From Eledone cirrhosa (lineage: Eukaryota), in NCBI GenBank assembly GCA_964016885.1, contig OZ024745.1, positions 60,698,001 to 60,762,000 of the forward strand: DNA of 64,000 nt, in the 5' to 3' direction. Below the pieces are notes generated by a model, which worked only from the letters and a program-made list of their open reading frames with translations, did not search any database and was not told the DNA's origin. The translations under genes and the position numbers were made by a program. Below are positions 13,032 to 62,774 of the stretch, one piece after another (position 1 is the stretch's first letter; the number at the start of each line of letters is the position of its first letter).

Positions 13032-13069
13032 CGAGAACAATTGTTTCACCTTAGCGGATCGTCAGCTCG
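13032..13069 (-). ncRNA. Minimal type I hammerhead ribozyme, left arm of foldback
   Basis: Minus strand reads CGAG-CTGACGA-tCCgctaaGGt-GAAA-CAATTG-TT-CTCG: helix I CGAG/CTCG, intact core, palindromic helix III. Confidence 0.85.
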
Positions 13070-13082
13070 TAATGGTCCATTA

Positions 13083-13120
13083 CGAGCTGAGGATCCGCTA
13101 AGGTGAAACAATTGTTCTTG
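13083..13120 (+). ncRNA. Minimal type I hammerhead ribozyme, right arm of foldback
   Basis: CGAG-CTGAGGA-tCCgctaaGGt-GAAA-CAATTG-TT-CTTG; inverted copy of 13032-13069. Confidence 0.8.
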
Positions 13121-13711
13121 GTATGGTGAACTAACTGTTGTATTACCACTTCTACCTAACTCGTCCCATGGACTGAGTGCTCTACCACTACGGATATTAC
13201 CTGCCAGTGTTCTATATATATATATATATATATGCTTAATATAGAAACTGCTTCTACAGGACTAGAACTATTTCATTCGAAGAAATCATTTTTATATTAA
13301 AAATTTATACGATACTAGGTATTGAGTACCTTACTTACTGTGGTTACCCCTGATTGAACCCGGGATATACATCTCTCTCTCTCTTTCTTCCTTTCTCCCC
13401 CCCCCCCCTCTCTCTTTCTCTCTATCTCTCTCTCTCTGTATATATATATATTTTTCTTTTCGGGGGTATGTGTTACCCATATGAAATGTCTCCCCCTATT
13501 GGGGATAATCGACTAATTTTTAAATTACATTTGTGATAATATTTTACACGTTTTTATTGTATGTAAACTTCCCCCTTTGTATTTGTCCCCTTCTTTTGTG
13601 CTCCTGTGGCTAATAAAGAAACACACACACACACATATATATATATATGCTGGGCGCACAGGCATTAGGATGTGTGTTTTCCTTCCAGCGACATATCAAA
13701 TATATCGATTT

Positions 13712-13799
13712 TCATCTGATGAAACCGTTCTCATAATCAACAGAAAATGCATGAAGGACATCTCGATTGCATGGAGAACCGTGGAAATAATTATTATGA
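13712..13799 (+). ncRNA. Type I hammerhead ribozyme with long helix II
   Basis: TCAT-CTGATGA-aaccgttctc...gagaaccgtg-GAAA-TAATTA-TT-ATGA; helix I TCAT/ATGA, palindromic helix III; between (TA)n tracts. Confidence 0.7.
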
Positions 13800-15172
13800 T
13801 TAAACGATATATGTAACCTCAGCATCTTATTTTGTTATATATATATATATATATATATATATATATATATATATATATATATGAACAGTATATATATATG
13901 TACAGTATATATATTTATATATATATATATATATATATATATATATATATATATATATATATATATATATATATATATATATATATATATATATACTGTA
14001 CATATATATATATATATATATCCATTAAAATCCTTCTATTTTTCTCCGGATTACTTTTGGAACTACAACTGGAACCGTCGAGCAAACTCTACGTGAGCTG
14101 TCCATCTACTGTGTGTAATATTTATATTACAACACTACGGAAAATACTGTATATATATATATATATATATATGTACAGTATATATATATGTACAATATAT
14201 ATATATATATATATATATATATATATATATATATATATATATATATATATATATATATATATACATACATACATACATACACGCAAACGCAAATGGCTTA
14301 TTATTATGGTTGGCGAGTTGGTGATTAGTAAAATTAAATTGCACCGGACTGATTCATAAATGAAACCATTGAGATAAAAACTGTAGTTAAACAAAAACCT
14401 AAACGAAAGAATGTCAGCAGTTGTGTCAGTAGAAAGTCAACATTGATGCTGTAATGGCTGCGAAATGTCATTTTCATTTCCTTTTTTTCTACAGGAGTGG
14501 GAGAGAGGGGGGGGGGCTCACGTGAACTGAAAATGTCTCGTGATACCATTACATAATCTGGTCCCCCGGGACCGCAAAGCGGCCTAACCCTTAAACAGTG
14601 AGTGGGTAGTAAATACAGATCTATCTAACTCACACACAATAAACAGTATATATAATTATAGATAACTTTATCGCTTCAACAGTATGAATTGTTAATCCAG
14701 ATTTCTCGTTTCTTTCGTATCACGTCATCCACCTTCCTTCTGCCTTTCTACTGTTATTGTTGTTGTTGTCGTTGACGTTGTCGTTGTTGTTGTTGCTGGT
14801 GGTGGTGGTGGTGGTGGTTTAGCCCCAAGTCAAACATGACCAAGCAAACCTATGACCGAAAGGGTTCAGCTGTGACTCACATCTTTTTTCTATGAGGTCA
14901 TGGAACTCATGACTTCAATACCAAATGTGTTCCTCACCCTTTTTTTTTTAAGAATGTGGGTGTGATTTGAGGGATATTTGAATAGCAGGACTAATTAACG
15001 TGTTGGTTAGTATTTCATGATCTAATGTGCTCCCGGTCGAAGTTTTTAGCAATCAAAGAAGATAAAGGATCACCTAAACGATTATTCTATAGCTGGAAAG
15101 ATAAATGATTATTTAACCAACCTACCCAAGACCGCCCTTAATTATGATATAAAATCTTTCATTTTATATTGT

Positions 15173-16250
15173 CTTCTTCTTCTTCTTCTTCTTCTTCTTC
15201 TTCTTCTTCTTCTTCTTCTTCTTCTTCTTCTTCTTCTTCTTCTTCTTCTTCTTCTTCTTCTTCTTCTTCTTCTTCTTCTTCTTCTTCTTCTTCCACGTAT
15301 CCATGGGATGGTTGTGGTCGCAGAGTCCTCAAGTACTCCTTTCAGTGGGTCCTCTCAGAAGCAACTGTCTCCATTTGATCTGGCTGGATCCCCAAGCGAA
15401 ATCAGCTGAGCTCCTGTATGTTATCCAACCATCTTACTTGGGGTCCACCTCAGGGTCTCTTGTCAGTTAGTTTTATTCGTAAAATTGGTCCAAGGATTCT
15501 TTCTTGGGACATTCTAACTACATGTCCATAATATCGGAGCTGTGATCTCTCAATTAGGAGAAGTAATAGCGCTACATGAAGCGACTCTCTGATCTCCGAG
15601 TTACGCACTCTATCGAGTAACGTTACTCCAAAGAACCTTCGGAGGAGGCCCATTTCGGCCGCTTGTATTCGCGACCATATTCTTTCGGTCATTACCTAAG
15701 ATTCATGACCATAGGTGAAGGTTAGCACGAAACCGAATTGAAGATAGCGAGTTTAACCTTTACACCTACGACCCTTCTTCGTGACCGAATATTGAAGCTG
15801 GTGCATTTGATTCAGGTTCTTGCCTTCCCCCCTTGAAAACAGTCTCGAGATACTTGAACTTCTTCACCTGCTTCAGTGGAACTCCATTCACATGTAGAGT
15901 GCACTGTGCAGGCTACCTCGAGAAAATGGGTGTCTCAGTCTTCGCAGCACTGATTTTCATTCCAGCAGTGCAGCGCTCGGCATTAAAACTATCAAGAGAA
16001 AGTCGGATATCACCTTCTAACGATTTAAATAATACCATGTCGTACGCAAATTTCCCTGATCCTACATCCGAGGAAAAAAGGAGGCGTACAAAGCTTGGCT
16101 TGGAAATAAGTCCTCCTTCTTGCACTTGCACAGATCAGCAAATAAAGTGTTCTGGCAGACCATCTGCCGACTTTGTAATAAAAAGTCCCTCTCCACTCCT
16201 GATATCAGGAACGAGTCTGATGTTCTTTCTTCGCAGAGCTGCATCTTCGT
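15173..16250 (-). mobile_element. Degenerate RTE-clade LINE 3' fragment with (GAA)n tail
   Basis: ORF 15450-15692 (RIQAAEMGLLRRFFGVTLLDRVRNSEIRESL...QLRYYGHVVRM) is the RTE post-RT region; frameshifted; (TCT)n at 15173-15292. Confidence 0.85.
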
Positions 16251-60857: not shown

Positions 60858-61468
60858 GGTGGCTGCCAACTCGTTTTCGAGTACGGCCACCACTACTTTA
60901 TATCCATGTAGGAGAACCCCTACCGATGCGCTGAACGAGTGTGACTTTTTAGTCCAGCCAGCGACTTGAAAACTCTGGTACAAACACTACACTTGTGACA
61001 ATTATTGACACATAGTGCTGGGCCCATGGTACCATGTGACGACAAGTGCAGAGAGCTCTCCAGATACAAAGCAATGCCTGTGCTGTGAAGCTTTTATAGT
61101 GAGCAAAGGCACTGCACAAAGCCAGTCCCACTCTCTTAACCAAGATGATATTTACCAAAAAGAATAACAAGTCAACATCATTGGATACCATCAGGGTTGC
61201 AGGTGTTATATCAGAGTTTTCCTTCTCCTAGAATTCTGCCTTGACAAAGGCTAAGGGGTCATCTCTCCCGGTGATTTTGGATGGCCATTGACTCTTAAGA
61301 TCTCCTTTGCCCTTTGACAGGTTTTGTTTTTAGTCCTGCAGGATGTCCAAAGTCACCCTCCTCACCAAGAAACCTTGGTGGGGTTGCCAGTTTAGTCACC
61401 AACGACCCGACCATGAGACAGGTTGTACTGGGATACATGTTACCAGTAGCACCAACTGGTGACCTGAC
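60858..61468 (-). mobile_element. Full-length copy of the bipartite RTE element
   Basis: Reverse complement of 39053-39660, within (TA)n. Confidence 0.8.
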
Positions 61469-62033
61469 ATAAATATATATATATATATATATGTATATAT
61501 ATATGTATATATGTATATATATATGTATATATCTATATCTATATGTATATATATATATATCTATATATCTATATGTATATATATCTATCTATATATCTAT
61601 ATGTATATATATATATCTATATATCTATATGTATATATATCTATCTATATATCTATATGTATATATATATATATATATATATATATATATATATATATAT
61701 ATATATATATATATATATATATATATATATATATGTATATATATATACATATATATACACACACATATATATATATATATAGTATTAATTATACTATTTA
61801 TGGTTATGTAAATACAAAAACCTTTTGCAGTTATATATATTTTTATACTATATGTATTTTAACCTGTATTTTAACCTGTATTTTTGATTGTATCTTTTAA
61901 TATGAATGTAATCTCTAAGTGTGTACTGCCACTCTAAATGCTGTAATGAATGTTGACCCACAATATTTGCATATGTATCTGTATGTCTCTTGGGTGAAAA
62001 GGAGGTCATATAAGTGTTCATTCATTAATAAAT

Positions 62034-62080
62034 TGCTCCGAAGAATCCAAACCTCGGTTTGGAGGAAACAGTTGTAAGCA
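62034..62080 (+). ncRNA. Hammerhead ribozyme with U4C substitution (probably decayed)
   Basis: TGCT-CCGAAGA-aTCCAAACCtcGGTTTGGAg-GAAA-CAGTTG-TA-AGCA. Confidence 0.68.
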
Positions 62081-62239
62081 TAAAAATGTTTTGAACAGTT
62101 CTTTGATTCTTATATTTCATATATATATATATATATATATATATATATATATATATATATGTGTGTGTGTGTATATATATGTATATATATATATACATAT
62201 ATATACATATATATGTATATATATATATATATACATAAC

Positions 62240-62573
62240 ATTTTTTCCCTTTGATTTATATGAAATTTAAACCATAGGTAAATAACAAGATATGATGCCT
62301 ATTCACAAAAGTTTTGAATTGATATTTTGAAAAAAATTATATACATGAAACAAAATAAGAATAAGATTTAATAATATAATTTTGATTTGATATATTACAA
62401 AAAATAATGTTTTCCAATTTTTCATGCATTACATTTTACATTGAGTAATATTGAAATGCAGAGTTTTTCTCCATAAATTATATCACTGATTTAAAATCAA
62501 TCATCATCTTCTTACGAAAAAAAAAAAAAAAAAAAAATTGTGAAACGCAGCAAGGTGCGGGTAATTCAGCTAG
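62240..62573 (+). mobile_element. Helitron 3' fragment
   Basis: CGCAGCAAGGTGCG hairpin followed by CTAG|T at 62570-62573. Confidence 0.5.
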
Positions 62574-62713
62574 TATATATATATATATATATACTCTTAA
62601 CACTATGACTTACTAAAGTAAACAAACCACTATCCGGATGGCCTCCAAAAACAACGGTCACCTTTTTGAAAGGGTACGTCAATTATCTATTTGTAAAACT
62701 GTTATATATTGTA

Positions 62714-62774
62714 TTTTGTCTGATGAAGGCATACCATGATTTAACTTGGTATCCTTGAAATATATATAATGAAA
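62714..62774 (+). ncRNA. Type I hammerhead ribozyme
   Basis: TTTTGT-CTGATGA-AGGcATACCAtgatttaactTGGTATCCTt-GAAA-TATATA-TA-ATGAAA. Confidence 0.8.

Follow-up and report, generated by a model that had tools for sequence, protein, structure and literature searches.

A 64,000-nt stretch of the Eledone cirrhosa genome (contig OZ024745.1, positions 60,698,001–60,762,000 of the forward strand; hereafter the window, with positions counted from its first letter) carries numerous hammerhead ribozyme motifs in and next to (TA)n microsatellites, which raises the question of what these motifs belong to and how they came to be inserted there. A sequence-only reading of the window had described 22 motifs from about a dozen families and ascribed them to retroelements mobilised in trans. 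The present analysis indicates that the motifs are very probably pseudo-long terminal repeat (pseudo-LTR) hammerheads of many Penelope-like element (PLE) families, mostly of the Hydra clade, together with two retrozymes, denoted here families F and H. The window copies of families A, C, D, and G are the 3' ends of 5'-truncated Hydra-clade PLEs that code for a reverse transcriptase (RT) and an endonuclease elsewhere, and family J is probably a PLE 3' end likewise.

Census of Hammerheads in the Window

The window was scanned with a helix-aware script for the arrangement helix I - CTGANGA - helix II - GAAA - helix III - TH - helix I', with 40 dinucleotide-preserving shuffles in 500-bp blocks as the control. 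Demanding a paired first base of helix II left only 6–7 motifs, and this criterion was loosened stepwise, with shuffles each time. The scan yields 17 perfect-core type I hammerheads between positions 13032 and 62776, nine on the plus and eight on the minus strand, all of which score at least 8 (shuffle mean 0.1, maximum 1, n = 40) and have a strictly palindromic helix III. There are also five matches with one core substitution, compared to a shuffle expectation of 0.32. Four of these, starting at 17676, 25111, 42929, and 62034, are credible, other copies of their families fitting the fold; the CCGAAGA substitution of the 62034 motif recurs in five of six homologous matches and is therefore a subfamily trait. 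The fifth, 34885–34961, was rejected as a chance fit, CTGANGA being present in none of its three homologous matches.

The weakest motif, 17566–17616 (minus strand; family M, helix III CAAGGCCTTG), is a degenerate hammerhead with two core substitutions, and is so ranked because its score falls inside the shuffle range (0.83 expected at 8 or above) and a homologue search for its hammerhead part found none; the DNA downstream of it (17358–17502) is 76% like retrozyme F. A motif of family O (25752–25794, plus), with one substitution and a non-palindromic loop, was added by homology, which brings the total to 23. Given that head-to-head and tandem copies are counted singly, these 23 motifs amount to about 18 insertions of 13–14 families.

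Rfam gave no match over the window at the gathering score and, by E-value, only microsatellite-driven microRNA and snoRNA among the 150 of 245 matches listed. Rfam models may miss minimal PLE hammerhead variants. The same scan was applied to 509.8 kb of the 2,995,841,428-base assembly, taken as 51 stretches of 10 kb placed evenly on 24 large contigs. It yields 49 perfect-core and 16 one-change motifs, compared to 0.8 and 2.2 in shuffles. The window hammerheads are thus confirmed as real and far beyond chance. The contrary view, which attributes them to chance in DNA rich in AT and repeats or to a fault of the assembly, can point to the misfit at 34885–34961 and to the empty Rfam result at gathering score, but it is contradicted by both shuffled comparisons, by reversed-pattern controls that gave 0 in all eight genome counts described below, and by the presence of the F unit with its tandem joint in four independent public runs; its probability is negligible and, for the set as a whole, it is refuted.

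Accordingly, the sequence-only reading stands on most points of description. Its 22 motifs correspond to the 17 perfect cores, the four credible one-substitution motifs, and the two-substitution motif at 17566, the last five being those it had listed with altered cores; all eight helix III palindromes that it named are present; and the motifs are minimal type I hammerheads of the PLE and retrozyme kind in their core, palindromic helix III, and (TA)n target. Its dozen or so families compare with the 13–14 of the window and with 62 clusters (a few singletons among which may be chance) formed by the 544 motif matches in all DNA scanned.

Parent Elements Elsewhere in the Genome

No PLE RT or GIY-YIG frame is present in the window, as judged from Pfam searches of 150 of its 197 unmasked open reading frame (ORF) pieces and a profile search in all six frames. 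This agrees with the sequence-only reading and is explained by the 5' truncation of the insertions. Extension of the flanks in the 5' direction, which the same reading had proposed, led to RT/GIY-YIG frames for families A, C, D, and G and to endonucleases for O and I. The PLE profile employed was built from 40 of 120 database relatives together with a family A locus (L056; scanned loci carry L numbers).

Copies of family A, represented in the window by an insertion described below and by a plus-strand hammerhead with one core substitution (17676–17723), run upstream elsewhere, at variable truncation points, into a reading frame of 585–619 aa with RT motifs and, at its C terminus, a GIY-YIG endonuclease, the hammerhead lying about 200 bp behind the frame end (L006, L007, L016, L042–L056, L162). 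Pfam named no family on these frames. One locus, L053, has the order hammerhead - frame - hammerhead with a period of 2,584 bp, and an inverted third copy. Family C is linked to a frame in L065, L114, and L116, with a 3' untranslated region (UTR) of 1.1 kb. Its window copy at 18544–19346 (plus) is a 5'-truncated 3' UTR plus tail, of which 715 bp (18544–19258) are 99.4% identical to the DNA downstream of the GIY-YIG frame of L065; the hammerhead (19150–19220, plus; helix III TGCGCA) has a perfect core and a predicted cut after 19212, and a second perfect-core hammerhead lies at 46954–47024 (minus). The family D motif (25111–25207, plus; long helix II, one core substitution) has a 75% homologue 253 bp behind the endonuclease end of a Hydra-type frame in L029. 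Family G is linked in L163 and L174, and a frame start follows the 5' hammerhead in L173. For C and G, the start and the end of the frame were read in neighbouring loci; for D, the endonuclease end only. Family J has perfect-core window copies at 54083–54148 (plus; helix III TATATA) and 62712–62776 (plus; predicted cut after 62768).

The A, C, D, and G frames match the definition of the Hydra clade and were assigned to it by motif marks. This clade has RT followed by GIY-YIG, an RWK or similar motif, DKT, a CxCx5C linker, CxxC/CxH, and no CCHH, in elements generally below 3 kb (PMC8557442, section 11). Here, the marks are RWR/DKT in A, RWT/DKT in C, and RWK/DKT in G, with DKT in place of DKG; the CxCx5C linker, CxxC/CxH, and the lack of CCHH are all seen in A, C, and D, and CxxC/CxH in G, for which this region was covered. 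The frames also have no cysteine pair between GIY and YIG, nor does any of 120 database relatives. A Neptune-clade label was rejected, the CX2-5CxxC linker and the CCHH finger with two GIY-YIG cysteines being absent in A, C, and D.

Families O and I are associated with endonucleases of what appears to be the canonical type (Penelope/Poseidon or Neptune). The O hammerhead trails a GIY-YIG frame in L034, L194, and L195, with two cysteines between GIY and YIG in L034. Family I is represented by two minimal perfect-core hammerheads (49447–49482, minus, helix III CG; and a variant at 49940–49975, minus), and in L189, one of seven loci, an endonuclease fragment lies about 530 bp upstream that is similar to L031, where the two cysteines are likewise present. 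Parents of B (13712–13799, plus; helix III TAATTA, long helix II, perfect core), E (25438–25472, minus; minimal, helix III AT, perfect core), K (54303–54341, plus; helix III GTAC, perfect core), L (62034–62080, plus), and M were not found by profile search of the scanned loci, a negative that is weak because the profile sees canonical PLEs only weakly. An apparent link of family L to an ORF in L054 was discarded, since the L copy there is a separate insertion next to and behind a family A end.

The profile matches 11 of the 51 random stretches, and a query with the family A endonuclease region returned 51,107 first-look candidates genome-wide, with a match in 150 of the 150 scored. Mobilisation in trans, as put forward by the sequence-only reading, is hence not supported as a general rule. 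Coding elements are the source of at least 8 of the 23 motifs (those of A, C, D, and G), a number that probably rises to 10 when J is included, and three more (O, I) trail endonuclease fragments; for F and H, which account for five motifs, it is supported.

Anatomy of the Insertions

The association with (TA)n is strict at the 3' end. A (TA)n tract of at least five repeats lies within 200 nt downstream of the cut in 17 of 22 window motifs (34885 being scored in place of 17566), compared to 25.9% of random positions, and in 53 of 64 motifs of the random sample (control 21.6%). Upstream, such a tract lies within 200 nt of 7 and within 400 nt of 15 of the 22 window motifs, and is found in 23 of 65 sample motifs, so that the inserts previously described as bounded by (TA)n are so only loosely on the 5' side.

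Long copies have the order hammerhead - tail - RT/GIY-YIG frame - 3' UTR - hammerhead - (TA)n. There are two fixed 3' ends, always at (TA)n, located from the cut at about +35 and +102 in A, +42 and +131 in C, +48 and +136 in J, and +54 and +153 in G. Given that in L053 and L173 the DNA runs through and past the long end into the start of the frame, each end then being followed by TA(C/T), the tail is the 5' UTR of the element and both ends are internal sites. Most copies are 5'-truncated and, therefore, only the ribozyme end is left.

In head-to-head insertions, one arm typically has the long end and the other the short end. In the window, the family A insertion at 12998–13212 consists of two Hydra-clade PLE 3' ends between (TA)n tracts, the left short (+38 from the cut) and the right long (+96), with perfect-core hammerheads at 13032–13069 (minus; helix III CAATTG, predicted cut after 13036) and 13083–13120 (plus; predicted cut after 13116). 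The family G insertion at 42218–42642 is likewise formed by two Hydra-clade 3' ends in (TA)n, the left long (+153) and the right short (+47), with perfect-core hammerheads at 42366–42420 (minus; helix III TATATA) and 42546–42600 (plus; predicted cut after 42595). After one spurious row out of 38 was dropped, 37 such insertions comprise 30 with a long and a short end, two with two short ends, none with two long ends, and five that could not be classified; 30 of 32 corresponds to a binomial P of about 1e-7 versus 0.5. The arms of one insertion diverge less than loci do in J (0.6% versus 4.4%), G (3.7% versus 8.5%), and C (4.0% versus 10.1%). Among the 30 long-plus-short insertions, the longer arm is the long-end one in 13 and the short-end one, by more than 4 nt, in 8, with 9 equal or unresolved. 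That either arm may reach further upstream argues against a pure cDNA fold-back.

Of 26 family tails, 5 have the word GAGTGCT between the short and the long end, compared to 0.0 expected (families A, C, G, and J and a relative of J), for example at 13174–13180, 19285–19291, and 62840–62846 of the window. One of the carriers being a relative of J, these represent about three independent lineages; the word is a candidate protein-binding site.

Palindromic inserts by (TA)n with no scored hammerhead are also present in the window (11328–11413, 17894–18154, 25475–25546, 45880–45989, 46497–46878, 54608–54871); they may be head-to-head insertions stopped before the ribozyme, or ribozyme-less elements. 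Perhaps another microsatellite-targeting element is a young 600-bp repeat, five copies of which (39056–39657, 39762–40332, 41093–41497, 55263–55864, 60861–61465) are 96–98% identical and share a fixed end, which lies at (TA)n or (ATGT)n. An older copy is present at 44687–45147, and the window scan found no hammerhead in this repeat.

Retrozymes F and H

Families F and H are non-LTR retrozymes. F is a tandem unit of 310 bp, with up to 10 units per arm among the first 100 matches listed, and H a tandem unit of 418–432 bp with a type I hammerhead and 2–5 units per array. No PLE-profile match was obtained in F loci L122–L151 or H loci L182–L184, and none by Pfam on the window F and H ORF pieces, which supports their putative mobilisation in trans. 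In the window, the F array at 27153–28296 is made of identical 310-bp units placed head to head in (TA)n, with two hammerheads per arm, a short left end (+128), and a long right end (+166). Its hammerheads lie at 27286–27328 (minus; helix III CGCG, perfect core) and 28094–28136 (plus; predicted cut after 28130), with two more from the scan at 27596–27638 (minus) and 27784–27826 (plus). The H motif (42929–42971, minus; helix III CTAG, one core substitution) is located inside an insert at 42812–43486. Three F arrays were examined; each is arranged head-to-head within (TA)n or TA-rich repeats, one arm ending at +128–131 and the other at +163–166. A five-unit H array (L182; G000:C1:19314400-19317600) consists of two sequence variants in alternation (ABAB), which would fit copying from a template of two units.

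Units of F read from two other loci are identical to the window unit in 66 of 70 cases and differ by one base in the other four (the loci overlap and are multiply counted); the F family is therefore very young. Folded as a circle, the unit reaches -67.8 kcal/mol, compared to -47.7 +/- 4.3 for 100 shuffles. The unit (window 27975–28284) is present in six public runs under four organism labels, with 0.89–1.00 of its words in runs X1, X2, X3, and X6. Reads on the unit give one 340-letter circular contig with no difference in each of X1 and X2, 597 variant pieces in X3, and four in X6. A joint going back 310 nt appears in all four runs, as is also expected from tandem DNA, the kind of run not being recorded as RNA, and it carries no information on circular RNA. 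The letter-for-letter presence of F under four organism labels may conceivably reflect recent spread between species, or else mixed samples.

Genome-Wide Load

Extrapolated from the sample, perfect cores number about 288,000 genome-wide, with a bootstrap range of 200,000–382,000. Motif density in the window is about 2.8 times that of the sample, and the four stretches neighbouring the window contain 5 motifs in 40 kb. Hence, the very large genome-wide load anticipated from the window is borne out, whereas the rate of one motif per 3 kb is not typical, being about 3-fold too high.

Exact pattern counts over the genome give 3,137 for A, 70,946 for the 3' half shared by C and J, 4,608 for F, 7,534 for the 3' half of G, 10,399 for H, 2,801 for I, 15,130 for O, and 27,663 for the 3' half of another family, Q. 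The eight patterns sum to 142,218, of which 36,075 span both core halves, and each reversed control gave 0. The 5' core is present in 39 of 49, 24 of 27, and 7 of 9 half-pattern matches, which translates into about 120,000 intact motifs from these eight patterns. As the forecast from the samples for the same patterns (about 164,500, from 28 matches) is 16% too high, we take about 250,000 motifs as the working figure.

For comparison, 126,247 motifs, about 4.5 per Mb, have been reported in the 28-Gb genome of the axolotl (PMC7229834; 10.64898/2026.07.22.740005), over 6,000 in Acropora (PMC7229834), and about 2,000–9,000 per genome in schistosome, coelacanth, and Xenopus, the latter with about 9,000 (PMC4209133). 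The density estimated here is about 70–130 motifs per Mb versus about 4.5 in the axolotl, a rough comparison given that the descriptors differ, as is that of 2,000–9,000 with the 2–3.8 x 10^5 sampled here. A published load of the latter size was not found in the literature searched, which left Repbase, Dfam, and subscription papers outside. Counts that Lunse et al. are said to have given in 2017 may bear on any claim of a record. The available portions of two papers on cephalopod repeats mention Penelope elements and contain the word 'ribozyme' 0 times (PMC13282606, PMC8967140).

Fold, Helix III, and Selection

Copies chosen by the 3' half alone retain a perfect 5' core in 39 of 49 cases in the C/J superfamily and 24 of 27 in G, and the free core position varies in C/J (T 30, A 5, G 2, C 2). 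Across 27 distinct C/J sequences, 90.9% of cells are paired, compared to 42–63% in slid controls, and 51 cells are changed on both sides, a number reached by none of 500 pair shuffles, although this statistic ignores kinship. Helix II shows A-U/G-C and U-A/C-G swaps. The statement that helix sequences vary while pairing is kept is thus supported for this superfamily. The conservation of the core across 62 clusters with unrelated helices, together with the compensatory changes in C/J, suggests that the fold is selected in the copies that spread. For nine helix III words, the computed hairpin energy is 0 and the self-duplex energy -1.7 to -19.5 kcal/mol; under the energy model these words are predicted to pair between two copies and to be incapable of folding as hairpins.

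Two additional families depart from this pattern. Family P (26365–26425, minus; 47265–47325, plus; also L021, L027, L059, L087, L107, L159, and L180) shows CAGAAGA - helix II - GAAA - GCAGC - GA, without helix I, in every copy seen, and sits in (TA)n; one window copy has a small indel. It appears to be abundant, with its core fixed in an altered or dead form. Family Q is present as truncated pieces (13235–13300, minus; 20845–20915, plus), with no parent identified, and its helix III, CAGTTCTAGTCCTG, is long enough to fold in the monomer. In L088-L089, which cover the 20 kb to the left of the window, four family Q hammerheads spaced about 3.8–4 kb apart form a large tandem repeat, with repeated weak endonuclease-end matches on the opposite strand.

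A Proposed Model of Insertion and Its Alternatives

The closest biochemical precedent is the Poseidon element PAc of the green anole, whose protein in vitro nicks both strands of AT-rich DNA and extends both, with RT starting at two internal RNA sites, and is predicted to be a dimer (PMC11167929). As in the families described here, the two internal starts are downstream of the cut and define the tail; PAc belongs to another clade and its start sites are inside the ORF, in contrast to the 5' UTR here. In the available portion of that paper, the two sites are not related to the two arms of inverted insertions, a relation that the genomic counts here do provide.

We propose that a dimeric RT-endonuclease would nick both strands of a (TA)n tract and that two first strands would be primed, one per start site, with either a single RNA or several RNAs of common origin as template. 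Both cDNAs would stop early and join by short homology, producing a palindromic insertion, and failure of one arm would leave a single truncated copy. The copied RNA would be tandem or circular, its 3' UTR leading into the 5' UTR across a hammerhead that is uncut or has been re-ligated. Under this model, F and H would be short units that have retained hammerhead and start sites and would be copied repeatedly, by rolling circle or from a multimeric transcript, into arrays. The ribozyme would probably serve to release unit-length RNA by cutting read-through transcripts, either as a helix III dimer or assisted by protein, the dimeric cleavage being suggested by the literature; most genomic hammerhead copies would be inert leftovers. 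Given the abundance of (TA)n, and since a tract that bears an insertion stays a target, families would accumulate next to one another. We consider such twin priming at two start sites probable, albeit with modest confidence; the long/short signature, also seen in all three F arrays, points to it.

Its main rival is fold-back of a single cDNA, whereby a first strand is made from the long end and the second arm is copied on it and stops at the short end. This would equally predict long-plus-short pairing, and it fits the subfamily bases shared by the arms, the hairpin-like centres with loops of 0–85 nt, some of them at a CATATG palindrome, and the inverted arm of L053, which shares one base change with the 5' copy but not with the 3' copy. 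Nevertheless, fold-back needs a long-end arm at least as long as the short-end arm, and the short-end arm extends further by more than 4 nt in 8 of 30 insertions, clearly so in L111, so that we regard fold-back as possible but doubtful. A separate question is whether the hammerheads contribute at all or are passengers, maintained by RNA-level replication of their own or by hitch-hiking, dispensable for insertion, and almost all without activity in the cell. In PAc, catalytic mutants insert normally in vitro, cleavage needs protein, and no reads end at the cut (PMC11167929); low activity even of dimers (PMC4209133) and cleavage in 1 of 9 retrozyme dimers (10.64898/2026.07.22.740005) have been reported; and the abundant family P shows a core that looks broken in every copy seen. 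We nonetheless consider this unlikely, in view of the core kept across 62 clusters with unrelated helices and the compensatory changes within one superfamily.

Still less plausible, indeed improbable, is the notion that all or most inserts are non-autonomous ribozyme elements, similar to retrozymes or SINEs, moved in trans. It would account for the lack of ORFs in the window, the ORF-less tandem units of F and H, the five motifs without a parent, and the shortness of most copies of every family, but A, C, D, G, O, and I, and probably J, continue into RT/GIY-YIG frames elsewhere, and the 5' truncation points are variable, with no fixed short unit.

Several observations weigh against the assignment to PLEs, twin priming, and a working ribozyme. 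With regard to the parents, J is linked only via an inverted arm in L106, the links of D and I come from one locus each, B, E, K, L, and M have none in the profile search, and same-strand G hammerheads are 4,097 bp apart, with C also long, versus less than 3 kb in the Hydra definition and 2,584 bp in A. With regard to the insertions, in family A the two arms do not clearly resemble each other more than loci do (mean divergence 8.2%, including one spurious pair, versus 10.4%, with a between-loci median of 6.7%), arm likeness could result from gene conversion after insertion, and the arm-reach values are rough, the references being incomplete and two rows self-aligned; in PAc, moreover, the start site is no different between strands (PMC11167929). 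As for the ribozyme, only 26 of 49 sampled perfect-core motifs genome-wide have a strictly palindromic helix III, 8 of 20 C/J pairs changed on both sides are matched by 111 of 500 shuffles, and self-cleavage, expression, and RNA ends at the cut sites are predictions from sequence. Seven isolated motifs fold weakly, with z from +0.41 to -2.58; weak folding by energy alone is expected of minimal hammerheads. The PAc hammerhead needs the protein to cleave, is dispensable for insertion in vitro, and has no RNA-seq reads ending at the cut (PMC11167929).

Relationship to Known Systems

PLE hammerheads with (TA)n targets have been described before, including a case in octopus (Hydra-1_Obim of Octopus bimaculoides; PMC8557442, supplement), and the kind of element is therefore not new. 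Apart from the protein motifs, the Hydra clade shares with the families described here the pseudo-LTR hammerhead, (TA)n insertion, 5' truncation, an inverted 5' copy, and an optional tail at one end (PMC8557442). The tail at one end was noted and the inverted structures were named unexplained by Craig et al. (PMC8557442). That work covers 27 families, with one mollusc and few non-cnidarian ones, whereas here several divergent families each have copy numbers from thousands to tens of thousands; in A, C, G, and J, the tails measure about 65–100 nt compared to 30–40 bp, and the Hydra-1_oBim hammerhead of its file S2, compared by eye, equals none of the window hammerheads.

The minimal PLE hammerheads described previously are likewise of type I, with a tiny palindromic helix III and an unpaired base before helix II, and occur as many families per genome, mostly as single motifs from truncated PLEs, with opposite-strand pairs 100–700 bp apart (PMC4209133). 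Metazoan retrozymes are, like F and H, ORF-less tandem units of low GC with one type I hammerhead each (PMC7229834; 10.64898/2026.07.22.740005); F differs in that its arrays lie head-to-head in (TA)n and pair a long with a short end, which is the signature of PLE insertions. The retrozyme type is further marked by a unit length of about 150–450 bp and by expression as linear and circular RNA. In the preprint by Li, Clavereau and Pollet, a PLE origin of retrozymes is argued from co-occurrence and sequence trees, and its available portion leaves the mobilisation mechanism open (10.64898/2026.07.22.740005).

The suggestion of the sequence-only reading that density, diversity, and host may be undescribed thus requires a distinction: the class, the target, and an octopus case are published (PMC8557442), whereas the scale was not found in the literature searched, and neither was the pairing of long and short ends in head-to-head insertions. 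What is new here is the scale, the diversity of families, and the quantified long/short signature, which is common to a retrozyme.

Other Repeats in the Window

An inverted duplication of about 500 bp (19992–20488 and 21492–21991; 95% identical, with a 248-bp core at 100%) surrounds 1 kb that holds further inserts; Pfam found nothing on it. A 2.2-kb array at 30570–32764 consists of 182 copies of the 12-bp unit ACCACCACTACT, and a LINE remnant with a Pfam zf-RVT domain (E 5.7e-6) lies at 63633–63878 (plus). An abundant SINE-like repeat with about 20 copies (17016–17150, 19686–19853, 21323–21470, 23122–23312, 35359–35562, 38009–38193, 51104–51223, 62861–63066, and older copies) presumably resembles octopod SINEs.

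Implications

The scale is 2–3 times the largest printed count found, at about 20 times its density. It is conceivable, and offered here only tentatively, that this genome has the densest ribozyme load yet described, with about one hammerhead per 10 kb and at least 60 families, that its insertions record a step of PLE transposition in which each subunit takes one start site, possibly on two RNAs joined by hammerhead helix III, and that F is a spreading 310-nt circle that uses the same two-site machinery. Through the long/short pairing, the tail and the two RT start sites, which were published separately, come together in a twin-priming model of the inverted structures that can be tested. The recurrence of this pairing on retrozyme F lends mechanistic support to the proposal that PLE proteins move animal retrozymes. 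Given an estimated 2–3.8 x 10^5 motifs with an intact core, many introns must contain one, and purging of sense-strand copies from genes would be a direct test of whether hammerheads cut in living cells.

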